Below are positions 9,600 through 58,294 of a stretch of 64,000 nt of DNA, piece after piece. The notes under the pieces are model-generated. The model saw nothing but the letters and a program-made list of their open reading frames with translations, searched no databases and was not told the origin of the DNA. Each line of letters opens with the position of its first letter. Position 1 is the first letter of the stretch. A program made the position numbers and the translations under genes. Source of the stretch: Chiloscyllium plagiosum (lineage: Eukaryota); NCBI RefSeq assembly GCF_004010195.1, contig NC_057724.1:65730096-65794095 (forward strand). Direction: 5' to 3'.

Positions 9600-10140
9600 C
9601 AGCCCATGGGTTTCCTCCAGGTGCTCCGGTTTCCTCACACAATCTAAAGACGTGCAGGTTAGGTGAACTGTCCACGCTAAATTGCCCATAGTGTTCAAGG
9701 ATGTGTAGGTTAGGGGCATTAGTCAGGGATAAACATAGAGTAATAGGATTATAGGGTAATAGGAGGAGAAAGTGAGGTCTGCAGATGCTGGAGATCAGAG
9801 CTGAAAATGTGTTGCTGGAAAAGCGCAGCAGGTCAGGCAGCATCCAGTTCCCTGTTCCCTGGATGCTGCCTGACCTGCTGCACTTTTCCAGCAAACATTT
9901 TCAGCTCTTATAGGGTAATAGGGTGGGTTACTATTCAGAGGGTCGGTGTGGACTTGTTGGGCCAAATAGCCCGTTTCCACACTTCAGGTCCTGTTCCCTG
10001 GATGCTGTCTGACCTGCTGCGCTTTTCCAGCAAACATTTTCTGCTCTTATAGGGTAATAGGGTGGGTTACTATTCAGAGGGTCGGTGTGGACTTGTTGGG
10101 CCAAATAGCCCGTTTCCACACTTCAGGGATTCTATGATTC
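9600..10140 (+). mobile_element. HE1-type SINE 3' part with nested PLE palindrome and a 139-bp tandem duplication
   Basis: gtgctccggtttcctc..gtgcaggttagg HE1 body; unit cctgttccctggatg..acacttcagg at 9851-9988 and 9990-10127. Confidence 0.75.
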
Positions 10141-15810: not shown

Positions 15811-15953
15811 GCACAACAGGATACGCTTTGCGTAAAATATGATCAGGACCTAATGATAGAAATTTTCTGTTTGTATATGTTGCTGCCACTATATTCTCAC
15901 TATATAGCCTTTCTCAATTTAATTCTCGCCTAAAACCTCTCCTGTTTCCACAG

Positions 15954-16060
15954 TTTGTTTCCTCATGTCTTTTCAAGAGCATACATCAACTTTAAAAATC
16001 AGGACGACATTGTCCTCTTCAGGGATCAATTTGATGGCTATGTTTTCATTGATAGCAAAG
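15954..16060 (+). CDS. UPF3B: UPF3B exon 3 (LFPHVFSRAYINFKNQDDIVLFRDQFDGYVFIDSK)
   Basis: cag acceptor, gtatgg donor, 107 nt; RAYINF and FDGYVF motifs. Confidence 0.97.
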
Positions 16061-17365
16061 GTATGGTAGTTTTAACTCTGCACATTGGTGAATGTACTGA
16101 CACTGTCTTGTTTGATTTCCACGTTTAATATCTGTTAAGTCCCTTGCCTTCAAACATGCATTTCAAAAATGCATTGTAAGGAATCATGTGTATTTGTCTA
16201 TCTGATATATACTAGTGTACTGGAAATGTGGAAAGAATCTAAATTAAAATTGTTCACAGAAATTTCACGTTCAGCCCAGAAGCATTATTTGATAAACAAA
16301 CTTGTCTTATTTAAATCAAATAAAATAGACAGAGCAGAAACAGTAATGATTGATTACCTTTTTAATACTTGCTGAAAGGAGTATTTGAGATTTTCCCTTT
16401 TGTATGATCTACTAAAAAGCACTGCTGTGATTAGATTTAATGTGCTTTGAAAGCAAACTGTTACAATGGAGGGTTTATTTTTTGCTTTAGAGAATCATTT
16501 TGCCTTTTTTTTTAAAAATTATTTCATTTATGAATAACCGTAAGGAAATATCAAAAACATTTTTTCATTATGTATGCTGATCAGCCCAACTTTAAAAGTT
16601 TTTACTTTTGTTAGTAGATGTAAAATGCAGAGAATGGAATTACAACTAAATAAACGCCAATCCTGACAGACTCCAAGTTGAATTAATTTTTAGAAGGAGT
16701 GATTCTTAATACTCCAAAGGATATTTTTCTGTTTGCAGTCCTTAAGTACATATATACCATATTTGAAAGGAACTTGGTGCCTGTGGTACAAATATTAGTG
16801 AGTACTATTTAATTCTGTAAAAATAGTACCAAGCAGGTACACCAGTTTTTCCACTTTCATCTGTTTATCAGTTAAAATGGCTGCACTGCTTGCAGGGATT
16901 GAAGTATTTATTTTTATTCTTTGATTTTCTGGGCTATTTCTTCATCCTCACTAGTTCCTTTGAGAGGTCGCAATCACATAGTTTGCTTTGGACTTGGCGG
17001 CTTTGCTTACCACCACATCACTGAATAATGAGTCTAGCAGCTCAGGAGACAATCACCGTCTGCTTGGGAAGCAACATCTTGCAGATTCTGACCATCCTAC
17101 GTGTAGGGATGACTACTTTCTGATTTGAATTTTCCTGCGTCATTTCTGGGCTTATGAAAGTGGATTTTCGGCAGCACCTCTGTGTATTTTGAACATTGGC
17201 CTGTTTAATGGATCTAAATGAAAATCTAACATTTTTAGCTGTTTGTTGAATAACTTAAGACAACAGTAGATGTGTCTTCAGCAAAATGTGTCTTTAATTC
17301 ATACTTAAATAAAGGGGTTTTTAAATGATTGTGTCTACTATGCTTCCCATCCTTGCACTCAATAG

Positions 17366-17464
17366 GGCAGGAGTACCCTGCGATTGTAGAATTTGCACCC
17401 TTTCAGAAAATTCCAAAAAAGAAGAGCAAGAAAAAAGATGCAAAAGTGGGAACTGTTGAAGATG
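17366..17464 (+). CDS. UPF3B: UPF3B exon 4 (QEYPAIVEFAPFQKIPKKKSKKKDAKVGTVED)
   Basis: tag acceptor, gtatgg donor, 99 nt; VEFAPFQK motif. Confidence 0.97.
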
Positions 17465-18619
17465 GTATGGATCCTATACATTTTAGTGATGGTATGGAGT
17501 ACTTTTTTTTTAAACAATGTAAACATTTTGTACACTGTTTTGTTCTATTCCATTTGTTTCTGCTTTCATGTTCATCTAGATGGGAAGGATGCAAGCTGTT
17601 CTAATTATCACAGAGAAGTTAATTGCCAGTTGCTGGAATTCTGGTGTCTATCATTATTGCACTGAGCCTTTAAAGTTACTGTACTGAAAGTTGTTAAAGT
17701 TTATTATTGGTTACTACAGTTGTACCAGTTACTGCTTGGGGGACAAATGACATGTTCTCAATGATCAACATTTTCTTTCAATATACTGTGGCTCAGTGAC
17801 AGTGCCTTCTCTTCTGAAAGGCATGAGTTTATAATGAGAATTGCAAACCTAATCACCTGCATTGGGGAGATGTTAGAAATTGCAGCAAACTCATCCTGTT
17901 TCCAGGTGGAAGGAAAAGTTGCCATAGTCGTACCACACAATACAGCTGCTCTCTCGTTATAGAAAAATGACTGATGGTGATTTGAGCTCAGGATCACCAT
18001 GCCTCAGGTGAAGGATTGGCAGAGGTGGAGTGCATCTAGTAGTTTTGAACACCAAAGCATTGATAATCCAGAGATGAAGGCCAATTATTTGTGCTCTAAC
18101 TATTGGGCCAGATTGACATCAACTAAATCCAATGAACCAGAGATTGCTGCACAATTCTGTCCAAGTAAATAAATTGGAAATATTTGAATATGGTTTTATT
18201 AAAATTCTCCATTTCTTTTCAGAATGTTACTTTGGATTGTTTTAGTGTTGTTTTAAAATGACAACTAAACTAATGTTGAGGTTGAATGGTGCAGACTCTT
18301 GAGGTGCAAGTTCAATCATTGTTATTATCTTACTGCTTTGGGTGGGTGTAGAAAGGCGTGAGTTGCTATTCCATGGAAATATGAAACTGGAATGGAGTTT
18401 CTGAACCATACTAGAGTTCAGTCATCAGAACAATAGATGTTTATGCCACAAGTTTCTGGAAAAGTGAATGGCAGGTTTATGTTTATTTCCTTAGCGCCAG
18501 GAATGTAGCAGAGTAATTGAATGTAAACACCTTGCCTTGTGTTTTCTTTTTGAGTCTTGTTTATGTTTGTTTTGGAATTGGTTGAGTTTTATTTAACTGT
18601 TTATATGTTCTTTTATCAG

Positions 18620-18733
18620 ATCCTGAATATAAAAAGTTCTTGGAGAGTTATAATAATGCAGATGATGAGAGAAATTCAAACAATCCTGAAACACTTTTGG
18701 AGGAAATTGAAGCTAAAACTAAAGAGTTAGCAG
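18620..18733 (+). CDS. UPF3B: UPF3B exon 5 (DPEYKKFLESY..PETLLEEIEAKTKELA)
   Basis: cag acceptor, gtaagt donor, 114 nt, phase 1/1. Confidence 0.96.
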
Positions 18734-19505
18734 GTAAGTTGATCTGTTTTATTAAGTCAAATTGCTTTCCAAGGTAATGTCTGTTCGGCAAAAATGACAA
18801 TATCAGAATTTGATCCAGAAAATTGAGTTCACTTTCTGATTGTATGCTATTTAATCTTAATGTAGCAACCTCTTACCATAACTAGCTAACCATTTTGTAC
18901 TAAACACGATCATCCCTATCATGATCAATGGGTTATTTCTTTACTTGATTCAGTGTTGACTTGTGGTTGGTGATGTGTCCTTACATTGGATCACATCATT
19001 CTAACTTACTTCATAAGAGTGAGGTAAGAGACAGAAATGCATTTGTTGTTATCACCACATGCATAATCAGACCTTTACCTTGGATTATTTGCATGTAAGC
19101 CCTTTTTAAGATGCATTTTCCATTTTTTTTTTTTGCTTGTATTTGTTTTTCCTTTCTTGTGCCCTATTCCTTTATTACTGCACATGTTCATGGCACTAAT
19201 AAAATTCTAAATCAGATCAAGAATTATATGGTACACATGGTATGAGACAAGTATTTGCCTGGTTATGAATTCAAATCTTCATATGAATTGAATTCCATGC
19301 ATTTTTGGGTTTAATTTATAACTGAAAAGATTATGTTAAAATAGCTAGTTGTTCAACACAACTGGATCATAAATACCCTTCAGTGAAGGAAGTTGTTTAC
19401 ATCCACCCAATCTTAAATTAGTCCATATTAAATAGTTGATTCTTAATACCCACTGAAACATCCTAAATCACTAAAGGCAACTCTGGTTAGATAACAAATG
19501 CATTA

Positions 19506-19704
19506 GAGCTGAAAATGTGTTGCTGGAGAAGCGCAGCAGGTCAGGCAGCATCCAGGGAACAGGAGAATCGACGTTTCGGGCATAAGCCCTTCTTCCTGAA
19601 ACGTCGATTCTCCTGTTCCCTGGATGCTGCCTGACCTGCTGCGCTTCTCCAGCAACACATTTTCAGCTCTGATCTCCAGCATCTGCAGACCTCACTTTCT
19701 CCCC
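19506..19704. mobile_element. palindromic PLE terminal-repeat insert with 14-bp TSD
   Basis: Arms gagctgaaaatgtgttgctggagaagcgcagc.. / ..gctgcgcttctccagcaacacattttcagctc; TSD taacaaatgcatta at 19492-19505 and 19705-19718. Confidence 0.85.
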
Positions 19705-19799
19705 TAACAAATGCATTACCCCTAAGAAATTAAGCACACCAATAGACTGACCATATTTTGTACATATAGGCTTCCAAGTCACAATGGTGTGACTTCCAG

Positions 19800-21330
19800 G
19801 GGAACCAGCAGAGTGGTGGTGTTTCCATGTGTCGTCTTGATTTTTCTAGGTGCTAGAGGTCATTGTTTTGGAAAGTGCTGTCAAAGGAGCCTGTGAATTG
19901 TTATAGTATTGCATTTTGTAGATTGTAAAGGTCTTGCCAATATCTGGTGGTAGTGGAGGGTGCAAATGTTGAAGCTCGTAGATGCATTGTATTGGATGGT
20001 ATCAAACATCTTAAGTGTTGTTGAAGCTCATTTGACTGCTCCCCATTTGCCTGGATATCCTGTTCTTAAATTGTGCCTTGTAGATGGCCATCAGGCTTTG
20101 AGGAAATGAGAGGTGAATTGTTCACAGCAGGGTTTCTGGTTTCTAAACTGTTATTGTAACCATAAAACTGTTGTGGCTTTCCCGTTCCGTTTCTTGTCAG
20201 TGCTAACTCCCTTACATTATTGAATGTCAAGGAGAGATGGTTAAAGTCTCTCCTAGACATACTGCATGGAAACACACCATGTTTGCTGGTCAGCATAGAC
20301 ATCAAACTACACTAATTCCATTTATCTGGACTTGGTCCACAATCTATTACACCCTGGCATTTTAACTACTAATTCAGGTGCGTTTTGAAAGTTGCCCACT
20401 CTGGTATATACCTGCCACACTCTAGGTTGAAAAAATAACTATTTCGCCTATCTTTCTTAAACCACTTGCTCCTCCCTTTAAATGTATGCCCTCTGTTCTT
20501 AGACACAGCTGTCATAGGCAAGGGATATTCATGATCTACTCTCTACCTCTCATAATTCTGTATATCTCGATCAGGTACTCCATTGGCCTCCTCAGCTCCA
20601 AGGAAAACATTGCAATCTATCCAGTCCGTCCTGATAACTTTGAGACTTTTGACCCCAGACAACATCGTGATTAATCTTCTGCCCACACTCTCTAGTGCAG
20701 TCACGTCTTTCCTACAGTGTGGGACCAGGACTGCACGCAGTATTCCATCTTTGGCCTAGCCCAATGTTTTGTTGAGGTGGTTATTACCTGACACTTTGAA
20801 ATGTAAATGTTACTTGCGCCTTGACTTCTCATGCCTGAATGTTACCCAGGTCTTGTTGCATTTGGATATGCGCATGCCTCAGTATCTGAGGAGTTACAAA
20901 TTATGCAATCATTAGTGAACTTCCCCAATTCTGACCTTCTGATGGATGGAAAGCCATTGAACCAGCTGAATTTGATAGGGCTTAGGATGATACCCTGAGG
21001 GAGACCTACAGAGATGCCCTGGAGATGAAATGATTGACTTCCTCCTTTTATGCCAAGTATAAAACCAGCCAGTGGAGAATCCAACACGCACAAGCACAGA
21101 TCACTGTTTTGTTAGGGTTCCTCGCTACCAATACTACTTTGATTCTTGCCTGCTGCCTCTGGAGGTCAGCTTTAGTCCGTGCTTGGAACAGATGTAATGA
21201 GGTTAGAAGTTGTGACCCTAGAAAAACTCAAACTGATTAGGTTATTGCTAATCAAATATCACGTACTGGTGTTGTTATAACCCCTTTCATAACTTTGACA
21301 ATCTAGAGTAGTGATAATTGGCCAAGTTAG
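19800..21330 (-). mobile_element. old degraded non-LTR retroelement fragments
   Basis: Degenerate RT-like sequence (e.g. gcttaggatgataccctgagggagacc = GLPQGIILSP on minus); a CR1-like piece is nested at about 20290-20780. Confidence 0.5.
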
Positions 21331-21414
21331 ATTTATAGTACTTTTTGTAGGCAAGACACATCTAGGCATTTTTTTTCCACATTGTCAAGCAAAAAATCAA
21401 ACTTCAAAGTTTGG

Positions 21415-21643
21415 GCGAAGATTTGTAGCTCGGGTGCTCGTTGTTGTGGTTCTGTTCGCTGAGCTGGAAGTTTTTGTTGCAAACGTTTCGTCCCCTGGCT
21501 AGGCGACATCATCACCACTATAAACACCGGAGGAAACATCAAAGAAGTGCTTCGCAGGAGGCTCCCAAGCACTGATGATGTCGCCTAGCCAAGGGACGAA
21601 ACGTTTGCAACAAAAACTTCCAGCTCGGCGAACAGAACCACAA
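21415..21643. mobile_element. palindromic insert of the second PLE family
   Basis: Arms about 21442-21514 and 21573-21643 are reverse complements; shares gatttgtagctc..gagctgg with the PLE ends at 5150 and 45790. Confidence 0.8.
21569..21608 (+). ncRNA. minimal hammerhead ribozyme motif, family 2
   Basis: GCA-CTGATGA-t-GTC..GAC-GAAAC-GTT-TGC: stem I GCA/TGC, stem II GTC(g)CC/GGGAC. Confidence 0.75.
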
Positions 21644-22048
21644 TAAACTAAACTGACTGAAGACTAATATATATGATCCTGGGAGCCTCGGGATGAGGCT
21701 AAAATGGATCTACCACTCTGCACTTCAGAAGATAGTTGCACGTTTGTCAGTTTTGTCTTAGGCGCTGGTGTGCTGAGCCCCCCCCATTGCCATTCATGAC
21801 TGGATGTGGCAATGCCACAGAGCTTGGGTCTGATCTGTTGGTTGTAGGAATACCTTACCCTATCTAATGCATGTTGCTGCTGCTATTTGGCACATGAGTA
21901 ATCCTATGTAGCTTCACCATGTAACTGACGTTTTAGATGTGCCTTGTACTGCATCTGGTATGCCCTCCTGAACTTTTCATTTAATCAAGTTTGATCTCCT
22001 GGTTTTATGGTAAACCGGGCACAATATGCCAGTAATGAGGTTGTATGT

Positions 22049-22240
22049 TATAAGACATAGGAGCAGAAGTAAGGCCATTCGGCCTATCGAGTCCACTCCG
22101 CCATTCAATCATGGCTGATCGGCATTTCAACTCCACTTACCCGCATTCTCCCCGTAGCCCTTAATTCCTTGTGACATCAAGAATTTATCAATTTCTGCCT
22201 TGAAGACATTTAGCGTCCCAGCCTCCACTGCACTCTGTGG
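22049..22240 (-). mobile_element. short CR1 3' end (young)
   Basis: Nearly identical to 7456-7643. Confidence 0.8.
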
Positions 22241-22563
22241 CGGATTTATGGTGGAATACAATTCTGCTGCTGATGGCTCATATTGACCCATTGCCCAGTT
22301 TTGATCTGTTCAAAATCTTATCACGTTCAGAATGATGCAAGATAATCTGAATGTGAAGACAACTTTGTCTCCACAAAGTGTGTGCAGTTTTACTCCTGCT
22401 GCTGTCATGGACATATAAGTGTGCCACAGGCATATTGATGAGGTCAAGTAGGTCTTTGCTTTTTTAGTTGGTTCCGTCACTATGTGCAACTGAGCTCTCT
22501 GCTGGACATTGGAGTTCACTGCAGCCCATTCTGTGGCCTTGCCACATTCTTTACATTATTCTC

Positions 22564-22781
22564 GATTAGTGGTGCTGGAAGAACACAGCAGTTCAGGCAG
22601 CATCCGAGGAGCAGTAAAATTGACTTTTCGGGCAAAAGCCCTTCATCTGGAATACTGATGAAGGGCTTTTGCCCGAAACGTCGATTTTACTGCTCCTCGG
22701 ATGCTGCCTGAACTGCTGTGTTCTTCCAGCACCACTAATCCAGAATCTGATTTCCAGCATCTGCAGTCATTGTTTTTACCT
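22564..22781. mobile_element. palindromic PLE terminal-repeat insert with intact plus-strand hammerhead core (22655-22682)
   Basis: CTGATGA a GGGC tttt GCCC GAAAC GTC; inverted arms; imperfect flanking repeat acattcttta[c/g]atta at 22544-22558 and 22782-22796. Confidence 0.8.
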
Positions 22782-23186
22782 ACATTCTTTAGATTAGCCC
22801 ATTTTTGCTCTAATACTTGCAATGTATGATTCATTTGTCCCCAGTGCTGCATCATTATAATGTACGTATGGCACAGAAAAAAGCCATGTGGTCCAACCAG
22901 TCGTTGCCACTACACAGCACTCACAGCTTCCATCCTTTCTTATTTCACTTTATCAGCTTAACCCTTCATTCCCTTCTCTGTCATTTAGCTTACATGCTTC
23001 CTCTTTTATGACTGTCCCTGTTACACGTTGATACCATCCCTTGGAAAGGAGGTTTCTTCTAAATTCTGCATTGCATTTGTTTTATATACTTCTTTTCCCA
23101 GTGTTACATTATCAGTTTGTAGAGACTCAATCAAAGCTTTTTGCGTATGTGCAAATTGATGAAATGGGTTTTTTTTCCATTACCAG

Positions 23187-23230
23187 CTAAGAAAACCACA
23201 CCCCTTTTGGACTACGTGAAAAATAAACAG
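23187..23230 (+). CDS. UPF3B: UPF3B exon 6 (AKKTTPLLDYVKNKQ)
   Basis: 44 nt, cag acceptor, gtaatt donor; TTPLL motif. Confidence 0.96.
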
Positions 23231-23349
23231 GTAATTTTTTTTGTTTTTGTCTTTTTATTTTACAAAGCTAATATACAGGGAGGCAATTTTGTTTATTCAA
23301 ATGGTTATTCATTGTCTGACTACTTTAAATTATTTTTCTTCTACAACAG

Positions 23350-23541
23350 AGAATAAGAGAGGAGAAAAGAGAAGAAAGGAGACGAAGAGAGTTGGAAAAA
23401 AGGCGACTCCGTGAAGAAGAAAAGAGAAAGTGGAGAGAGGACGAAAGACGGAAAAGGAGAGAAGCAGAGAAGCAAAAGAAGATGTTAGAAAAAGGATTTG
23501 AAAAAGACAAGGACAGATCGAAGGATGAGCCAAAGATAAAA
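23350..23541 (+). CDS. UPF3B: UPF3B exon 7 (RIREEKREERRRRELEKRR..DEPKIK)
   Basis: 192 nt, cag acceptor, weak gtactc donor; charged coiled-coil ending in EPKIK. Confidence 0.9.
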
Positions 23542-23629
23542 GTACTCGACATAATGTTAAATATTCTAGCAAACTGTTTCAATTTAAATTATTATATGCT
23601 TGACAGCAAACATCATTCTGTATTTGTAG

Positions 23630-23787
23630 CTTCTGAAGAAGGCAGATAAAGGGGATGACTCCTCCAGTCTAGAAAAGCCAAGGGAGAAAGTGAAGAAACT
23701 GGAGAGAGAGAGAGCTAAAGAGGACAGACCATTCACTGGACAGGGTAAACGCCTGGAGAGCACCATCAAAGAAGATAAAGGAAAGAA
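23630..23787 (+). CDS. UPF3B: UPF3B exon 8 (LLKKADKGDD..KEDKGK)
   Basis: tag acceptor, gtgagt donor, 158 nt; LLKK start continues KIK-LLKK. Confidence 0.9.
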
Positions 23788-24669
23788 GTGAGTGAGATTA
23801 AATTTAAACCGCATATATCCTTTGGTCTTATGTGGTTGAGCCATTCTCTTATGGAGTCAGACTTTGATACTAAATTGGTGTTGTGGTTTGCATCCACCCT
23901 TCAATTGAGGAGGAACTTGACAGTGGTGCAAATTCTAAGGAAGTGTGAATGCTTACTGTCATGAGCCTAGCATTTGAACTGGTTTCTTCCTATAAGTTGG
24001 TGTCTTGTCAATCCTGGCTAAGCATCTCTTGATATTTTTCTTTGAGTAAACCTTGAGTCATTTGCTAGATGATCTTCTGATGAAGTTCTTTTTCTAAGCA
24101 ATCTCCCAAGTATTAGCTTAGATAAACCCATTTCTGTGTCCAGCATCAATTCCTGGAAAGGTGGCAGTGGGAAATGCCCCAGTACATGCATTTGTGAACT
24201 GTTCGTTTGGGTTGGGGTGAGTAGCAGGTCTGTACATATTTTCTTCCTCCTCTTTTTGTGCGTAAACAGTATTTGACTGCTAGAACTTATAGAAACAGAT
24301 TTCTATCTTGCCACTCTGCCTGGCTATTATACTGCATTTCAGAGTGGTGTGTGAAACTTTAAACGATGGTTCAAGGAACAGTCTATGGTGATAATTGAGA
24401 AAAGAGCAAACCTTTTTATTACTATTGCAAACCTTTATCTAGATCAACAGGGTATGATTTTCAACTAGATTTTGAACTGTGAATAAATAAGCAAGTATAT
24501 GGGATGCAACTTATTGGACTCCAGAATATCCCAAAGCACTTAACCTCAAAAGTACCTGATTGGCGGTAAAGTTGTAATGTAAGAAGTTAGTCGTCAATTG
24601 GCACACGGGAAAGTCTGTTAATGAATGTTGATGTAAATTGTTTCACCTATGTTGATTCCGGAATAAATA

Positions 24670-24880
24670 TTTGCCAGGACACCAGACCAAACTCCCCAAC
24701 TCTTATTCTCAAAAACTTGATCTTTTGCATCTATCCAAGAGTGCAAATTGTGTGTCAATTTGAGTCTGAATGATGGCAGCTTTGACAGTGCAGCTCTCCC
24801 TCAGTGTTGTACTGAAGTCTGATTTTTGGAATGGGACTTTAATCCACAGCCTTTGATTTGGAGATGCGTGTGTTATCCCT
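24670..24880 (-). mobile_element. ancient Deu-domain-like SINE (SacSINE1/AmnSINE-like) remnant
   Basis: gacagtgcagctctccctcagtg resembles the conserved DeuSINE segment; the reverse form gagggagtgctgcactgtc occurs at about 9055-9073. Recognised from memory only. Confidence 0.5.
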
Positions 24881-25124
24881 TTTTTTCCAAGATGATATTG
24901 CATTTTCAAGTTGCTTGAAATGAGCGATGTTGACTAGTAATCCAAATTGCCGAATGTTAAAAGGAACAGATGGGAATTAGCCTGTGCAACATTTAGTACA
25001 CATTCATCTAGCTTGTTAGAATACCGGCTATTGCCTTTTGCATCTGTTTGCTTTAATAAATATTAATAAATTAATTTAACTACTTAACTTGTAATGTACG
25101 ATACTTAGTTTATGGAGTCAGAGT

Positions 25125-25274
25125 TGAAAAGCATGGCACTGGAAAAGCACAGCTGTCAGACAACATCCGAGAAACAGGAAAGTCAATGTTTCAGGCATAA
25201 GCCCTTCATCCTGACCTGCTGTGCTTTTCCAGCACCACACTTTTTGACTCTGATCTGCAGTCATCACTTTCTCC
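25125..25274. mobile_element. degenerate palindromic PLE insert with 14-bp TSD
   Basis: TSD tatggagtcagagt at 25111-25124 and 25275-25288. Confidence 0.7.
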
Positions 25275-25279
25275 TATGG

Positions 25280-26340
25280 AGTCAGAGTAATACCACACAG
25301 AAACAGACCATTTGGTCCAATTTGTACACATCGACCAGACATCCCAATCTGCCTAATACCAGCATCTGGCTCAACTCCCTCGAAACTTTTCCTATTCATA
25401 TACCCATCCAGATGCTTTTTAAATGTTGTAATTGTACCTGCCTCCCCCATTTCTTTTTGGCACAAGCCACCCTCAGTGTGAAAAAAATTACCTCTCTGGC
25501 CCTTTTTAAATCTTTCCCTTCTCACTTTAAATCTATGCCCTCTAGTTTTGGACTCTCCCACCCTAGGAAATAAACCTTGGCTTTTCTCCCTATCCATGCT
25601 GCTCGTGGTTTTAAATTTCTGAGCGTTGACCTTGCAGCCTCTATGCTTGATGGGGGAAAATGTTCTCGCCTATTCAGCCTCTCCCTATAACTCAAAACCT
25701 CCAATACTGGCAACATCATTGTAAATCTTCTCTGCACCCTCTGAAGTTTAGCAACGTCCTTCCTTGATCATGGAATAGAATACATCATAAAACTCCTACA
25801 GTGTGGAAACAGGCCATTCGGCCCAACATGTCTACACCAACCCTCAGAGTATCCCACCCAGACCCATTCCCTTACCCTATTGCTTAAAAATGTGTTGCTG
25901 GAAAAGTGCAGCAGGTCAGGCAGCATCAAAGGAACAGGAGAATCGACGTTTCGGGCATAAGCCCTTCTTCAGGAACCCTATTGCTCTACATTTACCTCTG
26001 ACTAATGCACCTAACCTACACATCCCTGAACACTATGGCAATTTAGCATGGCCAATTCACCTGACCCGCACATCTTTAGACTGTGGGAGGAAACCAGAGC
26101 ACCTGGAGGAAAACCATGCAGACACTGGGAGAATGTGTAAACTCCATAAAGACAGTCAGCTGAGATTGGAATCGAACCTTGGTCCCTTGTGCTGTGAGGC
26201 AGCAGTGCTAACCACTGAGCCACCGTGCTGCCCAAATGGAAGGACAAGCAGAATTGTACGCAGTATTCTAAAAGTAGCCTCACCAATGTTCTGTACAGCT
26301 GCAATAAGACATCTCAACTCTGATATTCCATGTTCTGACC
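25280..26340 (-). mobile_element. CR1 3' fragment interrupted by an HE1-type SINE (about 25780-26235), itself carrying a PLE monomer (25885-25974, TSD accctattgct)
   Basis: CR1 ORF remnants on both sides; SINE head gggcagcacggtggctcagtggttagcactgctgcc on minus. Confidence 0.8.
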
Positions 26341-26741
26341 AAGTTGTGAAATTGAAGTCAGTAAATCTGTTAATTTATTAGTTGGCATTAGGAAGAAATG
26401 AATGGGAGTCTGCCAGATTGTGACAACAATCCAACTAATTTCCTAATATCTTTCACATAGAAAACATACTGATCTAGTCTGCCAATATAGGTCGCCTGTA
26501 TCATGGGACTTGTTTGACAAGAGTCCATGACTTGGTTATTGCTGAAAATCGACACATTTCTGTCAGTGGTTTTTTTCCCATGCCAGCCACTCTCTTCACA
26601 TGCGGTATTTTATTTTTTATTCACTCATGGTGTAAAATGTTCCCTTTACATTTGATTTTGTTGTGAACGACCTGATGAGTGAGTACTAGATGAAAGTCTT
26701 CAAAATATATTATTTTCAGCAACACTTATTTGATTCTTCTA

Positions 26742-26975
26742 TGATTTGGAGATGCCGGTGTTGGACTGGGGTGTACAAAGTTTAAAAATCACTCAACACC
26801 AGGTTATAGTCCAACAGGTTTAATTGGAAGCACACTAGCTTTCGGAGCGACGCTCCTTCATCAGGTGATTGTCACCTGATGTCACAATCACCTGATGAAG
26901 GAGCGTCGCTCCAAAAGCTAGTGTTCTTCCAATTAAACCTGTTGGACTATAACCTGGTGTTGTGTGATTTCTAAC
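26742..26975. mobile_element. palindromic insert of a third PLE family, 13-bp TSD
   Basis: Arms aaatcactcaacaccaggttatagtccaacagg.. / ..cctgttggactataacctggtgttgtgtgattt; TSD tttgattcttcta at 26729-26741 and 26976-26988. Confidence 0.85.
26833..26867 (-). ncRNA. minimal hammerhead ribozyme motif, family 3
   Basis: Minus: CAC-CTGATGA-a-GGAGC gtc GCTCC-GAAAG-CTA-GTG; the plus-strand twin near 26890 has GAAA mutated to AAAA. Confidence 0.75.
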
Positions 26976-27139
26976 TTTGATTCTTCTAGCATTACAGAAA
27001 GCTAGTCATTTTTAAAACCTTGATTTAAGGTGCACCATATAGGAATAGGTAGTGGTCACTAAGTGCATGTTTGGCAGCGTCCTTTTTATTAAAACAAATC
27101 ATTTTTAAACTCGGTCATTTAAAACATTTTTTTGTTTAG

Positions 27140-27452
27140 GCATGACCGGGTTGAAGATGACAGTGGAAGAGATTACCGGGATAAAGAGGATAGGGAGCGT
27201 GAGAGAAGGCTAAAGGACAAAGAACGTCGGAAACGGCAGGAGGAAGAACGATGGAAGTCAAGGGAGCGATGTGAGGCAGACAAATCTTTCAGAAAAAAGG
27301 ATGAAGAGATTAAGAAGGAAAATGATCAAACAAATGAGAAGACCAGGAAGAAGGAAAGCTCAGAAGCTGCATCAAGTTATGACCGGTTGGAGAGAGGAAA
27401 AGAGGAGAAGAAGGAGGATGGCACAGCAAAGAAGGAACGAATTCGAAATAAG
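27140..27452 (+). CDS. UPF3B: UPF3B exon 9 (HDRVEDDSGRDYRD..KKERIRNK)
   Basis: 313 nt, tag acceptor, gtacaa donor; ends in RIRNK, the first half of the EJC-binding motif. Confidence 0.93.
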
Positions 27453-27984
27453 GTACAAGGATGTTTAATTGAGTCTTACAATCGAACAGAGAATGTTAGT
27501 GAAGCCAATGCTACCTTCTACTGCTCTTTAAAACATGCACGTGTGTGGAATAAAATACTCAACCACCAGTTTTTCTTTGGTAGTGCAGCTCAACCTATTA
27601 AAGCCATTTCATAATATCTTAACACACATTTTTGTTTATTTGCTTATTTGTGTTGTTCTCTATGTACCTTTTTTATCTATTTATTCAAAAAAATGAGAAA
27701 TACCTTCAAAGATATGTCATTCTCCCTCTGAATTTATTCAGCGTAGTTGTCCCATTTTCAACAATTGAAGATTGACATATTGACAGCATTACTCTGAAAT
27801 AAACATAAATTGTGCGCTTTGCTTTTAAAATTTTATTGCATTATCCCTGATGTCTTTAAAGAAAATGCATTTTTTTTCTTGTGGAAATGTGATAATATCT
27901 AATCCACCTTTCAGAAGTGTATTTTCAGGTATCGGATATTGAGTTGTTGAGTTTGAAAGTTAACTTTTTTTTTAATGTTTACAG

Positions 27985-28152
27985 GACCGACCAACAATGC
28001 AGCTGTACCAGCCAGGAGCACGGAGTCGTAGCCGGTTAATGACCAGTACAAAGTCTAATGACAGCAGCATAAAGCCACCAGAAGCAAGTGAGGAGAAAAA
28101 GGAGGAATTTGAGGCTTCCAGGAATATTGCAGAAAAGGAGAGTGAAGAATGA
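27985..28152 (+). CDS. UPF3B: UPF3B last coding exon (DRPTMQLYQPGARSR..KESEE*); regulator of nonsense transcripts 3B, total CDS 1413 nt = 470 aa
   Basis: cag acceptor; RIRNKDRP.MQLYQPGARSR is the UPF3B-type EJC-binding motif; TGA at 28150-28152; all exon phases are consistent. Confidence 0.95.
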   Translation, partial: DRPTMQLYQPGARSRSRLMTSTKSNDSSIKPPEASEEKKEEFEASRNIAEKESEE

Positions 28153-30099: not shown

Positions 30100-31532
30100 G
30101 AAAATGTGTTGCTGGAACAGCGCAGCAGGTCAGGCAGCATCCAGGGAACAGGAGAATCGACGTTTCGGGCATAAGCCCTTCTTCAGGAATGAGGAAAATG
30201 TGTCCAGCAGGCTAAGATAAAAGGTAGGGAGGAGGGACTTGGGGGAGGGTCGTTCGAAATGCAATAGGTGGAAAGAGGTCAAGGTGAGGGTGATAGGTCA
30301 GACTGGGGTGGGGGCGGAGAGGTCAGGAAGACTGTGCTGAGTTCGAGGGATTAGACTGAGACAAGGTGGGGGGAGGGGAAATGAGGAAACTGGTGAAATC
30401 CGAGTTCATCCCTTGTGGTTGGGAGGGTTCCTAGGCGGAAGATGAGGCGCTCTTCCTCCAACCGTCGTGTTGTTGTGGTCTGGCGATGGAGGAGTCCATG
30501 GACCTGCATATCCTTGGTGGAGTGGGAGGGGGAGTTGAAGTGTTGAGCCACAGGGTGGTTGGGTTGGTTGGTCCGGGTGTCCCAGAGGTGTTCTCTGAAA
30601 CGTTCCGCAAGTAACCGGCCTGTCTCCCCAATACAGAGGAGGCCACATCGGGTGCAGCGAATGCAATAGATGATGTGTGTGGAGGTGCAGGTGAATTTGT
30701 GGCGGATATGGAAGTTTCCTTTGGGGCCTTGGAGGGAAGTGAGGGGGGGGGTGTGGGCGCAAGTCTTGCACCTCCTGCGGTTGCAGGGGAAGGTGCCGGG
30801 AGTGGAGGTTGGGTTGGTGGGGGGTGTGGATCTGACGAGGGAGTCATGGAGGGAGTGGTCTTTACGGAACGCTGATAAGGGAGGGGAGGGAAATATATCC
30901 TTGGTGGTAGGGTCCATTTGGAGGTGGCGGAAATGACGGCGGATGATACGCTGTACATGGAGATTAGTGGGGTGGTAGGTGAGGACCAGTGGGGTTCTGT
31001 CCTGGTGGTGGTTGGAGGGGCGGGGCTCAAGGGTGGAGGAGCGGCAAGTGGAAGAGATGCGGTGGAGGGCGTCGACCACGTCGGGGGGGAAATTGCGGTC
31101 CTTGAAGAAGGAGGCCATCTGGGTTGTACGTTTTTGGAACTGGTCCTCCTGGGAGCAGATGCGGCGGAGATGAAGGAATTCGGAGAATGGGATGGCGTTT
31201 TTACAGGGGGCATGGTGGGAGGAGGTGTAGTCCAGGTAGCTGTGGGAGTCGGTCGGTTTGTAGTAGATGTCCGTGTTGATTCGGTCGCCTGAGATAGACA
31301 TAGAACGGTCGAGGAAGGGGAGGGAGGAATCTGAGACTGTCCAGGTGAATTTGAGGTCGGGGTGGAAGGTGTTGGTGAAGTGGATGAACTGTTCAACCTC
31401 CTTGTGGGAGCACGAGGCGACGCCGATACAGTCCTGGACTACACCTCCTCCCAACCTGCCCCCTGTAAAAACACCATCCCATTCTCCCAATTCCTTCGAC
31501 TCCGCCCGGGGAAGCGAAAATCATGGAGGAGG
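30100..31532 (-). mobile_element. 5'-truncated Penelope-like element (RT thumb + GIY-YIG, open frame), 13-bp TSD
   Basis: ORF 30351-31490 with LPFLD..TDIYYKPTDSHSYLDYTSSH, C.RRRCKTC, IIYCIRCTRCGLLCIGETGR; TSD agccaattgtgtt at 30087-30099 and 31533-31545; sense hammerhead in the 3' end at 30155-30190. Confidence 0.92.
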
Positions 31533-31969
31533 AGCCAATTGTGTTCCCATCCATAATGGATGTTTTTTGTCTGACTGAACCTGATAGCAGTTTGGCTTTC
31601 AAAGCTGATGGCAGTGAACGCAACATCAATTTCTTGTATAACACACCACTGCAGAACATAGAAAGCTGGTTCTTTAATAAACAAAAGGACCACCTGCTGG
31701 TACCATCGCACCAAGTAAAGAATGCCATTAAATTCTGTTTCTGCATCTCCTTTGCTGGACTCAAAGTCTGGTTGCAAGCACAGAAACTCCTGCTCTCATG
31801 GACAAACTAAAGGTAAGTGCAAGATCTCTGCTGCAACTGTATATTTGTGAATCAAGTAAGTTTACCTATTAAAAGGTAATCTGGGGGAGATCCAAGATGG
31901 CGGTAGTCTGAGTGGTCTGCTGTGCTGTGCTGGGCTCTGTGCCGTACCCCTGGGCAAGGTGGACCTTTA

Positions 31970-32202
31970 GTTGAAACTTTATTGCTGGAACAGCACAGCA
32001 GGTCAGGCAGCATCCAGGGAACAGGAGATTCGACGTTTCGGGCACAGGCCCTTCTTCAGGAATGAGCCTTCTTCATTCCTGAAGAAGGGCCTGTGCCCGA
32101 AACGTCGAATCTCCTGTTCCCTGGATGCTGCCTGACCTGCTGTGCTGTTCCAGCAATAAAGTTTCAACTTTGACCTCCAGCATCTGCAGACCTCACTTTC
32201 TC
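31970..32202. mobile_element. perfect palindromic PLE insert with two back-to-back hammerheads (32028-32063 minus, 32075-32110 plus), 15-bp TSD
   Basis: About 96-bp exact inverted arms; ATTC-CTGAAGA-a-GGGC ctgt GCCC-GAAAC-GTC-GAAT; TSD caaggtggaccttta at 31955-31969 and 32203-32217. Confidence 0.9.
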
Positions 32203-34474: not shown

Positions 34475-34719
34475 CGCTGAAAATGTGTTGCTGGAGAAGC
34501 GCAGCAGGTCAGGCAGCATCCAGGGAACAGGAGAATCGACGTTTCGGGCATACGCCCTTCTTCAGGAAGCCCTTCACCAAAAACTTTCATGTACTTACCC
34601 CCACACTCCGGATTCCTCAACTGATTTCTGAAGAAGGGCTTATGCCCGAAACGTCGATTCTCCTGTTCCCTGGATGCTGTCTGACCTGCGCTTCTCCAGC
34701 ATCTGCAGACCTCACTTTC
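34475..34719. mobile_element. palindromic PLE insert with unique spacer, 17-18 bp TSD
   Basis: TSD tcctgtgtgtaagaatag at 34457-34474 and 34720-34737; hammerhead cores on both arms. Confidence 0.85.
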
Positions 34720-42091: not shown

Positions 42092-44075
42092 CCAGGTTAT
42101 GGTCCAATAGGTTTATTTGGAAGCATTAGCTTTCGAAGCACTGCTCTTTCATCAGGTGGTTGTGGAGTATAAGATCATGAGACATAGAATTTATTGCAAA
42201 GGTTTGCAGTGTGATGCAACTGAAATGATATATTGAAAAAGACCTGGATTGTTTGTTCAGTCTCTCATTTTTTTAGAATGATAATGTTGGTTTCATTCTT
42301 TCATATGTAAATCCCAGAACTATTTTTAAAGTTACATTCTGGAGAACTTTATCTGAGATGACATGGCACCTATTGTTAATGTATTGAAGGTGTGAGATTA
42401 AAGTCTGTCTGTCTGTGCCCCAGTGTTCAGACTGATTCTATTTCTAATAAAGAGATTTACAGAATCTTACTTGGATTCATGCACCTTTTGAGCAAAATAA
42501 AATGTAATTCTGCAAGTACAAAGTTACTGCACAAATTTGTATCTGTGTGCATGTGTATGTGTGTGAGTGTAAAGGGTTATAAGTCTGTGATAGGGAGTGT
42601 GTATATGTAAGCGTATGCGAGAGAGCTTGTGTATGAGAGTTCTGTGTGAGTGTATTGGTCTGTAGGAGTGTGTGTGTGTGTGTGTGTGTGTGTATAATGC
42701 AGTGGGGTCACCTCTAGTGTGACATTAACCCAAGGTCTCAGATGAACGGGATACAATGCTCAACTTATCGACTGCTAGTTCCGATGTGCCACCGCTAGAA
42801 ACTGTAATGAGCTGCAAACAACAGGTATCCTTCGTTGTCCAGTACTTCCCAGGAGCCAAAAAACTACGTCATGTTCTTTGCAACCTGCAACACATTATCA
42901 GTGAGGATGAGTACCTAACTAAGACCTTCCCACATCTCCACTTCTCACCTTTTAAACAGCCATCAAACCTCATATGATCATTGTCTGCAGCAAACTGCCT
43001 GGCTTTCCGGACACCATACAACCCTGTCACAGCAGCCACTGCAAAGCGTGTCACTGTTGACACGGATACCACCATTACATGTGGAAACACCACCCACCAT
43101 ATACGTGGCAGGTAATCATGTGACACGGCCAACATTGTCTATCTCTTGCATTGCAGGCAAGGATGCCCTGAGGCATGATACATTGGTGAAGCCGAGCAGA
43201 GGCTACACCAACAGATAAGTTGACACTGCGCAACAATCACCAGCCAGGAGTGTTCCCTCCCAGTCAGGGAACACTTCAGCAGTCTGGGACATTCAGCCTC
43301 GGATCTTCGGGTGACCATCCTCCAAGGTGAACTTCAGGACAAGCAACACCACAGAATGGCCGAGTAGAGGCTGATAGCTAACTTTGGTATCCATGAGGAT
43401 GGCCTCAACTGGGACCTGAGGTTCATGTCACACTACAAGTGACCCACTGCACTATATACAGACAGACAGACAGACAGACATAGATGCACAGAAACCCACA
43501 CAAACAAACACACATGCATATATATTCTCTTTCTCATATGCTGACACTACACCCCTCCACACACAAACGTACCCTCTAATAGACTTTTATTCCTTTACAC
43601 TTTCACACATATACATGTACACACACACACACACCCACCCTGTGCACACACACACATAGGTTTGCAGGGTGAATTTGTACTTGCAGAATTATGTTATATT
43701 TTGCTCAAAAACTGCATGAGTCCATGTAAGATTCTGTAAATCCATTTTTTAGAAATCCGTCTGAACGTTGGGGCACAGACAGAATTTAACCTCACACCTT
43801 CAATGCATTATCTGAGGCGACGTGGGACTTATTGTTAAAGTTCACTTGAGAATGTAACTTTAAAAAATTAGTTCTGGGATTTACATACGGAAGAACTGAA
43901 ACACACATGGTCATTCTAAAAGATAACAGACTTAACAAACAATCCAGGTATTTTTCAATATATCATTTCAGTTGCATCACACTGTAAACTTTTGCTATGA
44001 ATTCTATGTCTTACGATCTTATACTGCACAACCACCTGATGAAGGAGCAGTGCTCCGAAAGGTAGTAGTTCCACC
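42092..44075 (+). mobile_element. third-family Penelope-like element: GIY-YIG remnant (about 42760-43440) between about 650-bp inverted arms
   Basis: Degenerate ..YLLHCRQGCPEA*YIGE.. core; 42117-42745 is the diverged reverse complement of about 43405-44075, including (GT)n/(CA)n tracts and a hammerhead-like motif at each outer end. Confidence 0.82.
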
Positions 44076-44597: not shown

Positions 44598-44690
44598 TCA
44601 AAGTTAAAAATCACACAACACCAGGTTATAGTCCAATAGGTTTAATTGGAAGCACTAGCTTTCGGAGCGCCACTCCTTCATCAGGTGGTT
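44598..44690 (-). mobile_element. family-3 PLE terminal monomer with intact hammerhead motif (44653-44687)
   Basis: Minus: CAC-CTGATGA-a-GGAG tggcg CTCC-GAAAG-CTA-GTG. Confidence 0.75.
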
Positions 44691-45787: not shown

Positions 45788-46720
45788 GGATTTGTAGCTC
45801 GGGTACCGGTTGTTGTAGTTGTAAGTATGTTCGCAGAGCTGGGAAGTTAATCTGCAGAATGGTGAATGTACCACAAAAGTGTACAGGAAAGCCACACACA
45901 CCGACCAGGTCCTGAACTACAACAGCAACTCCGCCACCCAAACACACACCAGAGAAGCTGCATTAGGACCCTGTTCAAAAGAGCTACAACACACTGCAGC
46001 ACTCCAGACCTACGAAGGGAAGAAAAAGAACACCCCTATAGAATATTTGCCTGCAACTTCATCTGCAGATGCCTAATAGACAAACAACGCAATGAGGGCA
46101 TGCCATAACCTAACTCACGATCCACGCTACCTTACATAAAAATGTCCCTGAACTGACAGGCAGACTTCTCCGACCACTGGGATTCATGACAGCCCATAAA
46201 CCGACAGCCACGCTCAGACAACAACTCACCAAAGCAAAAGACCCTATACCAATCATCTGCAAGGCAAACCTAATTTATAGGATTCCTAGCAAAGATTGCA
46301 GCAAACACTATATAGGGGAAATAGGCAGACAACTAGCAATCCGCATCCACTAACACCAACTGGCCACTAAACGCCACAAGCAGCTGTCCCTCGTAGCCAC
46401 ACACACACATGACAAGGACCACAAATTCGACTGGGACAACACAATGATCATTGGACTCACCAAACAGAGGACAGCCAGAGAATTTCTAGAAGCATAGCAT
46501 TCATCCATGGACTCCATCAACAAACACATAGACCTAAACCCAATATACCCGCCACTACAATGAACGAGTGGAAGCAGCAAAAACAGAACTAAATAAATTC
46601 CAGAAGACACAGTACAGCAATGCTTCACAAGAGGCTCCAAAGCACTGAAGATGTTACCCAGACAGGGGAGGAAACGTCTGCAAATCAAATTCCCAGCTCG
46701 ACAAACATACCCACAAGCAC
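45788..46720 (+). mobile_element. second-family Penelope-like 3' fragment with short inverted ends
   Basis: YRKATHTDQVLNYNS, ..CSKHYIGEIGRQLAIRIH; left end gatttgtagctcggg..gctgggaagtt mirrors right end aattcccagctcg..acaagc; degenerate hammerhead near 46642-46682. Confidence 0.8.
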
Positions 46721-53003: not shown

Positions 53004-53049
53004 CTGTTTGATGTTTGGAAGGAAGTGGAAGTGAATTATGTGGGGTTGG

Positions 53050-53615
53050 GGAACCCTGAGCTTCCAGTTGCCTGCCACTTTAACACACCACTGTGCTCCC
53101 TGGCTAACATCGCTGTCTCAGGCTTGCTGTAATGCTCCAGTGAAGCTCAGTGCAAGCTGGAAGAACAACACTTCATTTACTGCTTGGGAACCCAGACTCA
53201 ATATAGAGTTCAATAATTTTAGGGTATGAACTCTCCCGAGTCCTAGCCCCCAACCCCACATTCCAGGCCTTATTATCACATCATCTATCATTACGCACTA
53301 CCAGTCACCACTAACAGTTAGCCACTAACAGTCTCCATTAACTGCTATTCACCATTCTAGCCAGATTGTTATCGACCCCTTTGTCTGTCCAACTGTTCTT
53401 TTCTCTTTGGGCTCTATCTCCACCTATCATTTACTTCCTACCCCTTCCCCTCACCCGATCTTCTGCAAAAGAATTGACATTTTCCTAGCTAGCATCGGTT
53501 CTGAGGAAGGGTCACTAGACCCGAAACATTAACTCTGATGCTGCCAGACCTGCTGAGCTTTTCCAGTAATTTCTGTTATTGTTTCTGATTTACAGCATCT
53601 GCAGTATTTTTGGTT
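53050..53615 (+). mobile_element. PLE 3' end, fourth family, with hammerhead-like motif at 53498-53533
   Basis: KLEEQHFIYCLG remnant; GTT-CTGAGGA-a-GGGTC acta GACCC-GAAAC-ATT-AAC. Confidence 0.7.
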
Positions 53616-58146: not shown

Positions 58147-58294
58147 CCACAGCTCGACAAAGCTTTGACAAAGGGTCAGTTAGACGCGAAACGTCAGCTC
58201 TTTTCTCTCCTTAACAGATGCTGCCAGACCTGCTGGGATTTTCCAGCATTTTCTCTTTCGGTTTCACATTCCAGCATCCGCAGTAATTTGCTTT
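58147..58294 (+). mobile_element. fourth-family PLE terminal monomer, 14-bp TSD
   Basis: TSD tttccacagtaata at 58133-58146 and 58295-58308; tgacaaagggtcagttagac[g/t]cgaaacgtc also at 3221-3250. Confidence 0.7.

Follow-up and report, generated by a model that had tools for sequence, protein, structure and literature searches.

Minimal hammerheads of three Penelope-like element lineages in the shark Chiloscyllium plagiosum share a design that was most likely inherited

The window, a stretch of 64,000 nt of Chiloscyllium plagiosum (contig NC_057724.1, positions 65,730,096 to 65,794,095 of the forward strand; coordinates below are those of the window), contains three exons of a UPF3-family host gene on the forward strand (15934..18774; PF03467, E 4.8e-12, 2.5e-10, and 2.6e-4) and pieces of Penelope-like elements (PLEs) with hammerhead motifs. 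Further likely UPF3 exons, read by eye near 23350-23490, 23640-23790, 27140-27453, and 27986, would place the hammerheads of the segment 21415..26988 in UPF3 introns. This segment begins with an inverted end piece of the putatively Poseidon-type family 2 (21415..21514, reverse strand) with an optional tail of ~35 nt (compared with loci L005 and L008-L010); this copy begins at U4 and is without C3 and the 5' strand of stem I. The forward family 2 end piece (21515..21646) stops at the first, tail-less 3' boundary and carries TATAAA at 21519-21524 and a minimal hammerhead at 21569..21608, with a predicted cut after 21605. Within this hammerhead, A9, the extra U, and G10.1 form an AUG (21578-21580), which opens a frame of ~36 codons that is similar across Poseidon-type subfamilies. 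A family 1 inverted pair (22556..22788; forward core at 22655, stem I broken) and a reverse-strand family 1 stub (25879..25976; core at 25972) follow, and then a tailed family 3 stub on the reverse strand (26741..26872), whose intact hammerhead has the palindrome AGCT and an A at N17, with its forward inverted partner (26884..26979), where the catalytic G12 is changed to A at 26913. For both hammerheads inside this segment, the inverted partner is broken.

Coding remnants lie further along. The reverse-strand ORF at 30423..31460 is the 5'-truncated 3' part of a family 1, Neptune-type PLE ORF, comprising the RT thumb, a CX4CX2C linker, and a GIY-YIG-like end (weak match, E 0.068); a family 1 hammerhead (30155..30190, reverse strand) lies 233 nt downstream of it. 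A long forward family 3 copy (42811..44067) includes a decayed Neptune-type linker and endonuclease (match 43098-43388) and a hammerhead at 44036 with a broken palindrome, AGGT, and another family 3 hammerhead is found at 44653..44687 on the reverse strand. On the forward strand, a decayed Poseidon-type endonuclease end (46045..46681) has a hammerhead at 46645 with C11.1 changed to G, and a family 4 copy (53049..53533) joins a decayed endonuclease end (53049-53192) to a hammerhead. Also on the forward strand, a hammerhead with a U3–A8 core (58161..58199), absent from the original prediction, belongs to a family-4-related subfamily and has stem I AGCT/AGCT and a G–G mismatch in stem II.

These motifs are minimal type I hammerheads of PLEs: They have the core CUGANGA ... 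GAAA ... UH and stems I and II, with no stable stem III. The hammerheads predicted for family 2 (21569-21608, forward; stem I GCA/TGC, stem II GTC..GAC, GAAAC-GTT), family 3 (26833-26867, reverse), and family 4 (53498-53533, forward) were recovered exactly, and the family 1 form, GGGC/GCCC with GAAAC-GTC, occurs at 6207, 22655, 32079, and 34628 on the forward strand and at 25972, 30186, 32059, and 34565 on the reverse strand. Fifteen sites in the window join the core to a palindromic 4-mer and a stem II of 3 bp or more; the chance mean is 0.083 (maximum 1) in 60 order-3 Markov windows. With a stem I of at least 2 bp added, the numbers are 12 and 0. In an Rfam scan with E allowed up to 10, no hammerhead family was matched, which has no bearing on minimal forms, and the inverted pairs gave only hairpin-type miRNA matches under gathering scores.

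The finer features of the prediction needed some correction. Stem II of family 3, given as GGAGC/GCTCC, is so at 26833-26867, but reads GGAGT/GCTCC at 44653-44687, with G–U for G–C. The single extra base after CUGANGA is indeed common to families 1-4: It was assigned directly between positions 9 and 10.1 in 25 of 32 matches, and a further 5 fit once CpG decay of C11.1 is allowed, while G10.1–C11.1 is present in all eight subfamily representatives. The self-complementary 4-mer had been described for families 1-3, where it stands, but family 4 is palindromic as well; its rows include ACGT, ACAT, and ATGT, the window copy at 49948 has ACGT, and the ACAT of the copy at 53498-53533 is a CpG-decay form of ACGT. 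Across 21 subfamily majority lines the 4-mer is ACGT, AGCT, or a CpG-decay form of ACGT, with the sole exception of one single-copy line with a deletion; positions 15.1-16.1 are palindromic in 98/100 among the matches listed, the pattern having allowed CC, GG, CG, and GC. The pair constraint is loose in places, because the commonest family 1 forms have a T–T mismatch at the third pair of stem I and the youngest family 2 form has a G–G mismatch in stem II.

A PLE ORF was found upstream of the hammerhead for families 1-4 and for the U3–A8 subfamily, in families 1-4 with the hammerhead at the same relative position; for family 3, 16 of 27 ORF-bearing strands (23 loci) have a family 3 hammerhead within 1.1 kb downstream. 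Among 20 longer homologues RVT_1 was annotated in 18 and GIY-YIG in 3, and family 2 locus L030 has an RVT_1 match of E 5.4e-10. No full-length intact element was found among the retrieved loci; the hallmarks of EN+ PLEs are present, namely 5' truncation, an inverted 5' copy, and an optional tail of 30-40 bp. The zinc linker reads CNRRRCKTC in family 1 and CHSRCCKMC in family 3, with invariant cysteines, and that of family 4 (CX2-5CxxC) was assigned by homology. Neptune-clade EN+ PLEs, in the parts of Craig et al. (2021; PMC8557442) covered, likewise have an RT, CX2-5CxxC linker, and GIY-YIG end, 5' truncation, inverted 5' copies, a 30-40 bp tail, and a hammerhead near the 3' end. The linker suggests that families 1, 3, and 4 are of Neptune/Nematis type; the trees contained no named reference elements. 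Family 2 is probably Poseidon-type, a name given for its likeness to the Anolis carolinensis element PAc and for its motifs.

Families 1 and 4 are one lineage. Their ORFs are 47.7% identical over 266 aa, their flanks align with a score of 53 (shuffle maximum 24; 0/500), they form a clade with support of 100/99, and their cores share one cluster (169 of 298 cores). They also have GGG/CCC in common, so that neither the claim of unrelated families converging nor that of completely different stem sequences can be upheld for this pair. Family 3 represents a second Neptune-type lineage. The tree leaves out L096, L093, L136, L073, L251, L182, L232, L058, L223, L271, and six database proteins, whose linkage was doubtful, whose length was short, or which cost too much run time; P0001, P0017, and P0019 appear in neither tree because they are too short. 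An ORF piece from L095/L096 was rejected as family 3, being a family-1-like piece between family 3 arms, and true family 3 ORFs were used in its place.

Covariation among the eight subfamily representatives is extensive: 94.3% of cells are paired, two-sided change occurs in 5 of 11 pairs, and the score of 0.412 was reached in none of 500 shuffles, slid registers giving at most 0.131. It should be noted that the shuffle result is inflated because the eight rows, hand-picked as the least decayed, are mutually related. The inference from covariation to a selected RNA structure nonetheless stood up, through two-sided changes among homologous subfamilies and through the 3-8 core pair. Here, a swap from C3–G8 to U3–A8 marks a subfamily of 2,100 exact copies genome-wide (control 0), which came from a flank-only search and is nested in the family 4 clade (support 94/86). 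A8 is present in 99/100 of its copies among the matches listed, and U3 in 14 of 19 copies chosen without regard to it, C3 being found in none. Positions N7 and N17 vary, and N17 is never G in subfamily majorities. A second, independent U3–A8 origin in family 3 was considered and rejected: A8 there is CpG decay of C7–G8, and U3 (4/36 A8 against 3/63 G8 copies, hand-counted; Fisher p 0.25) is unlinked to it.

A shared design whose stems covary had been published before, and it does not show convergence. In the parts covered, Cervera and de la Peña (2014; PMC4209133) list the core, extra nucleotide, palindrome, and family-level covariation, and the metazoan PLE minimal hammerheads described there agree with the shark motifs in their type I core, lack of a true stem III, palindromic 15.2-16.2, extra nucleotide between 9 and 10.1, G10.1–C11.1 pair, many covarying families per genome, and mostly solo truncated copies with close inverted pairs. 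Stem II measures 4-5 bp in shark families 1, 3, and 4, against 7-8 bp in Schistosoma. The same portions contain the only literature on U3–A8 that we found, the Schistosoma mansoni Cercyon motif with the same compensated swap (~1,300 matches, against 2,100 here). Unlike that of Cercyon, the shark swap lies in a vertebrate Neptune-type subfamily surrounded by C3–G8 relatives; the C at its position 7 suggests that G8 first decayed as a CpG and that C3U followed. Neither these parts nor two of the three supplement files mention sharks, and no shark hammerhead report was found in the openly readable literature covered; a shark count may have been published.

Genome-wide, 166,330 intact-core matches were found (control 263), a density of ~47 per Mb, and a pattern search returned 9,961 family 3 copies. 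The parts of PMC4209133 covered give ~9,000 for Xenopus tropicalis and 4,000 for the coelacanth, with different descriptors. As far as covered, the papers on non-LTR retrozymes (PMC7229834; bioRxiv 10.64898/2026.07.22.740005) describe type I hammerheads related to those of PLE pLTRs, with ~120,000 canonical motifs (~4 per Mb) in axolotl; retrozyme units are arrayed in tandem, head to tail, and the motifs of the coral and axolotl examples are canonical, whereas the shark stubs, solo or inverted, are scattered, carry minimal motifs, and are linked to PLE ORFs. Head-to-tail tandem units were not found among the window copies, which are solo or inverted; one short direct duplication occurs in L099.

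The stubs have a sharp 5' boundary. In two sets, 72/180 and 12/30 start within the 11 nt up to C3, and only 12 and 3, respectively, in the preceding 49 nt; ~40% of Neptune-type copies thus begin at stem I, not at the cut site. Starts within 3 nt of the predicted cut (8/180 and 1/30) include mapping artefacts, and no cleavage footprint above mapping noise was seen among the stubs. The same edge is visible in RNA, where 139 reads have loose ends at 30189-30190. At the predicted cut, RNA ends did not pile up in one single-cell poly(A) run, a library type that is a poor test. A TATA-like box lies 29-32 nt upstream of stem I (the family 1 match is weak), and its spacing suggests that the pLTR promoter starts RNA at stem I. 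Inverted joints cluster at stem I, and L096, with its family-1-like ORF piece between two family 3 arms, looks like a template switch. The 5' joints were also examined for a cap-derived extra G, a signal confounded by inverted partners.

We consider it likely that these are inherited pLTR minimal hammerheads of three PLE lineages, kept by selection on master elements and copied as stubs. Some 166,000 intact-core and many more decayed stubs would have been copied from master elements whose transcription starts at stem I via the TATA-like box, which would explain why stem I has only 3-4 bp. As in the anole element, where this has been shown, reverse transcription would start ~70-130 nt more internally, and complete copying of the uncut RNA 5' end from there would leave a stub. 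Vestigial-stem-III hammerheads had been taken to cleave efficiently as dimers, which is contradicted by published assays: For PLE minimal hammerheads, the parts of PMC4209133 covered report no monomer and low dimer or trimer cleavage, and the anole hammerhead did not cut unless the PLE protein was present (Frangieh et al. 2024; PMC11167929). By analogy with these relatives, a single motif probably cannot close stem III; two copies would pair via the palindromic 4-mer, probably with help of the PLE protein, and cut slowly. Cleavage may then process tandem or read-through element RNA while being dispensable for each insertion, and such weak, partner-dependent activity would explain host tolerance of many intronic copies. 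Family 2 resembles the anole element PAc in its ORF start at stem II, with the AUG and frame present, in a cut-to-A distance of 28 nt (26 in PAc), in two 3' ends ~35 nt apart, and in an uncut RNA template (PMC11167929). Unlike PAc, families 1, 3, and 4 are Neptune-type and lack the A9-U-G start codon because their extra base is A. The overlap of the family 2 motif with a start codon and frame is a second source of constraint.

Doubtful, though worth stating, is a reading in which element RNA starts exactly at stem I and the ribozyme forms the capped 5' end, the palindrome pairing two RNAs in a dimeric RT complex, much like a retroviral dimer-initiation site, and driving the template switches by which inverted and tandem pLTRs arise. 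If so, ~10^5-10^6 stubs would be a population-scale record of the template-switch step, and the U3–A8 subfamily a natural rescue experiment indicating that catalysis is still required. It is likewise improbable that selection keeps the fold chiefly as a signal for pairing or recognition (an RNA–RNA dimer via the palindrome, protein binding, or template switching by the RT at the 5' end of the RNA), with cleavage incidental. The derivation of stubs from uncut RNA, the joints at stem I, and L096 fit such a signal, as do the anole catalytic mutants that left insertion unchanged, the anole RNA-seq without reads ending at the cut, and the predicted protein dimer (PMC11167929). However, the anole motif cuts when protein is present, the 3-8 pair survived a change of both its bases while N7 and N17 vary and N17 avoids G, the pattern expected of a catalytic core, and the 4-bp palindrome pairs weakly (-1.7 to -2.5 kcal/mol). 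In cofolds of isolated motifs the lowest-energy form was a stem II arm swap, not the active dimer, a result that speaks neither for nor against dimer action.

True convergence, with lineages 1+4, 3, and 2 each gaining the motif independently, is very unlikely. Flanks across the three lineages score 12-14, inside the shuffle range, the family 3 ORF is 26-27% identical to that of family 1, and the family 2 ORF had no significant BLASTP match in the pieces compared. Hammerheads arise repeatedly under in vitro selection. Independent gain or frequent loss is also allowed for Chlamys elements in the parts of PMC8557442 covered. Against this, position, orientation, extra base, and the G10.1–C11.1 pair agree across lineages, descent is directly shown for families 1 and 4, and hammerheads were reported for every PLE whose pLTRs had been examined by 2014, as well as for Poseidon and Neptune elements of fish (PMC4209133, parts covered). 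A non-shark relative, L310, found via the protein nearest to family 3, has the same design with the palindrome AUAU; a clear hammerhead was present in only one of eight metagenome relatives, two of which had <150 nt of 3' flank. Inheritance is simpler than convergence because of the same position behind PLE ORFs in all four families and the design of L310, and the shared design most likely comes from a common PLE ancestor.

CpG decay strips individual copies of core bases: Among 79 copies, G12 was lost in 16, C15.2 in 20, and G16.2 in 18, and the loss is fastest at CpG. Most copies are decaying leftovers, and selection acts on active master elements, not on genomic copies. That the host selects individual copies as working ribozymes, such as regulators of UPF3 pre-mRNA, is highly implausible. 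The intact family 2 copy at 21569 does sit in a likely UPF3 intron, on its sense strand, and element sequences occur in poly(A) RNA; yet this copy owes its intactness to its youth (~98% identity to many others), cores decay, and inverted partners, antisense and broken, are unusable as dimer partners.

The role of PLE hammerheads is of interest since published cleavage is weak or protein-dependent and dispensable for insertion in vitro. This genome offers graded natural variants (compensated stems, the G–C to G–U step in stem II, the nested U3–A8 swap) and a very large copy set, which together provide test pairs for whether selection keeps catalysis or pairing. An apparent AUAU-palindrome master family was rejected: Its six identical rows are a broken family-4-like stub riding inside another young repeat of ~1.3 kb, and double CpG decay can account for the remaining AUAU rows. 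In this genome the swap between the palindromes ACGU and AGCU happened once.

The hammerhead motifs of the four families of Penelope-like elements (PLEs) belong to three lineages, all of them PLEs, with the hammerhead at the same place in each. Every motif cited for families 1–4 in the original prediction was found at its window coordinates, and a descriptor search that required the core, a palindromic 4-mer and a stem II of 3 bp or longer returned 15 window sites, whereas 60 windows generated by a Markov model averaged 0.083. In the family 3 motif at 44653, stem II contains a G-U pair. The palindrome in place of stem III, described for families 1–3, is also present in family 4 (ACGU), the 4-mer of its window copy being a CpG-decay form. 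Two additional copies (58161–58199, + strand; 3220–3250, + strand, truncated at both ends) represent a family-4-related subfamily with U3-A8 replacing the core pair C3-G8. A CTGATGA...GAAA match at 26669–26699 (+ strand) with GAC/GTC flanks has an unpaired stem II and no repeat homology was seen; it is probably a chance match.

The likely introns of a UPF3-family gene (15934–28036, + strand) hold several short truncated PLE end-repeat copies with hammerheads (stubs), in both orientations. Three of its exons were found at 15.9–18.8 kb (73 of 143 candidate stretches scanned), and because exon-like stretches, read by eye, extend to ~28 kb, the hammerheads of the 21415–26988 stretch likely sit within its introns. 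Both inverted partners inside that stretch are broken. Inverted stub pairs forming long hairpins (9796–10055, 19504–19700, 31966–32201, 34472–34750, and 48575–48663) are a possible source of dsRNA within host transcripts; these hairpins also give spurious miRNA-family matches.

The families had been described as unrelated, which does not apply to families 1 and 4: both belong to a DNA cluster that holds 169 of 298 cores, and their 3' flanks can be aligned with a score of 53, against at most 24 in shuffles. ORF identity between the two is 47.7% across 266 aa, and the tree joins them in a clade with 100/99 support (23 rows, midpoint root, without named references). The family 1 ORF (31460–30423, − strand), with the hammerhead 233 nt after it, has its nearest named protein in Chiloscyllium punctatum (77% identity over 58% of the query) and carries a CX4CX2C linker, a type that marks Neptune/Nematis elements according to Craig et al. 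(PMC8557442). The family 4 hammerhead lies downstream of a family-1-related ORF (retrieved loci L044 and L057, and window 53049). In family 3, it lies downstream of an ORF that is more distantly related and shares the linker type (window 43098), the motif following in 16 of 27 ORF-bearing strands (23 loci); this ORF is 26–27% identical to that of family 1 and groups with a database protein (support 99/99). Family 2 hammerheads lie downstream of a reverse transcriptase (RVT_1, E 5.4e-10) and endonuclease of a type unlike the other families; BLASTP of the compared ORF pieces gave no significant match, and the flanks of the three lineages (1+4, 3, and 2) showed no alignment between them. Here an AUG is made up of A9, an extra U and G10.1; it opens a frame of ~36 codons, alike across subfamilies, an arrangement matching that at the hammerhead of the anole Poseidon element (PMC11167929). 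As is typical of PLEs, families 2 and 3 have inverted 5' copies and an optional tail of ~35 nt; family 1 has the same inverted pairs, with two 3' lengths. Decayed Poseidon-type reverse transcriptase and endonuclease fragments occur at 6377–7364 and 52256–52675 (− strand).

Convergence, as originally proposed, would mean independent hammerhead gain in deep PLE lineages and is the less simple account: the three lineages share the place of the motif, and a metagenome PLE relative has the same design (L310:1931–1972; minimal hammerhead, 7-bp stem II, a third palindrome, AUAU), located 154 nt downstream of the ORF match. This design was found in one of eight metagenome loci, retrieved with the protein nearest family 3. 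Hammerheads are also reported across PLE clades in PMC4209133 and PMC8557442. Inheritance by the shark PLE lineages is thus the simpler account. At another locus (L096:470–1160; G000:C1:2452465–2455499), a family-1-like Neptune ORF piece, with 71% DNA identity to the window's family 1 ORF, lies between inverted and forward family 3 arms; the arrangement resembles the product of template switching from one PLE lineage to another.

Covariation holds among homologous subfamilies, but the comparison of unalignable families on which it had been based is weak evidence. Across eight homologous subfamilies of the family 1/4 lineage, two-sided changes occur at 5 of 11 pairs: the 3-8 pair, one pair of stem II, and three of stem I. 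Pairing is kept in 94.3% of cells, and the score is 0.412 in the true register against at most 0.131 in slid registers; none of 500 shuffles reaches it. The rows were chosen as least decayed and are related to one another, so these figures should not be read as probabilities. Covariation of stem I is also seen within the Poseidon-type lineage (GCA/TGC vs TCA/TGA) and within family 3 (CAC/GTG vs TAC/GTA). Pairing is not strict: the most abundant family 1 forms have T-T in stem I, and young family 2 has G-G in stem II. At the second pair of stem II, subfamilies A5, A6, and A7 include G-C (family 4), G-U (U3-A8), and probably A-U (the poorly sampled A6), a series that follows a textbook compensatory path.

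In the active hammerhead fold, position 3 is paired with position 8. To avoid circularity, a 756-kb evenly spaced genome sample was searched by 3' flank only, and this revealed the subfamily with U3 and A8 replacing C3 and G8. It has 2,100 exact copies genome-wide (control 0), and in a separate search roughly four in five of the first 100 matches listed have the U3-A8 form; unselected copies have U3 in 14/19 and C3 in 0/19. The subfamily, to which an ORF of its own is linked, branches within the family 4 clade. The C at its position 7 suggests an initial loss of G8 through CpG decay, with compensation coming later; a family 3 subfamily shows the same G8 decay uncompensated (A8 in 36 of the first 100 rows listed). 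The C3G/G8C rescue in the anole element supports 3-8 pairing (PMC11167929), and the U3-A8 swap is already published for Schistosoma (PMC4209133).

Among 79 core-spanning family-1-type copies (of 134 found by flank), three CpG sites are altered most often: G12, the catalytic G, in 16 copies, C15.2 in 20, and G16.2 in 18. The remaining core positions are altered in 0–6; the core is kept in 52 and core plus palindrome in 37. Individual copies lose core and palindrome bases at CpG sites, and therefore selection acted on the active source elements, not on genomic copies.

Mapping of 5' ends covered 222 copies (180 family 1/4, 30 family 3, and 12 family 2). Starts fall in the 11-nt stretch ending at C3 in 72/180 and 12/30 copies of the family 1/4 lineage and family 3, in the preceding 49 nt in 12 and 3, and near the predicted cut in 8 and 1, respectively; family 2 showed no peak up to C3 (1/12 mapped copies). 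RNA reads have the same edge. Long copies of families 3, 4, and the U3-A8 subfamily carry TATAAA-like boxes 29–32 nt ahead of it, read by the spacing rule for TATA box to start site, and family 1 has a weak TATA-like box. We infer from these sequence features that the edge is the transcription start in Neptune-type elements; this is not general to PLEs, since Drosophila Penelope has an internal, TATA-less promoter. Family 2 reads of one poly(A) run are strand-biased ~6 to 1 and cross the predicted cut with no end pile there, which has no bearing on cleavage and shows that uncut RNA exists.

Most likely, these hammerheads are inherited, weak ribozymes, predicted to be partner- or protein-dependent, which would sit at the 5' end of PLE RNA and be copied uncut into genomic stubs. 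Efficient dimer cleavage, as had been assumed, is contradicted for minimal PLE hammerheads (PMC11167929; PMC4209133); of the Xenopus hammerhead dimers, 1/9 cut. The design, including each originally predicted feature, is already described in PMC4209133; this genome contributes the number of copies, the clue to the start site, and an example of U3-A8 in a vertebrate, for which a plausible origin can be proposed.

In the 3.56-Gb assembly, the pattern CTGANGANGN{8,20}CGAAASSTH, of which stem pairing is not a part, has 166,330 matches, compared with 263 for the reversed control, and 98 of the first 100 matches listed carry the palindrome. The flank-only search gave 229 copies in ~819 kb, or roughly a million genome-wide if the sample is typical. 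Published counts, obtained with differing descriptors, are ~9,000 in Xenopus tropicalis and ~4,000 in coelacanth (PMC4209133), and ~120,000 canonical motifs in the far larger axolotl genome (non-LTR retrozyme literature, PMC7229834 and bioRxiv 10.64898/2026.07.22.740005). At six places (L329–L334, G000:C1), a young repeat of ~1.0–1.3 kb, its copies 99% identical to one another, has two passengers: a family-4-like hammerhead stub that is broken and a fragment of decayed endonuclease.
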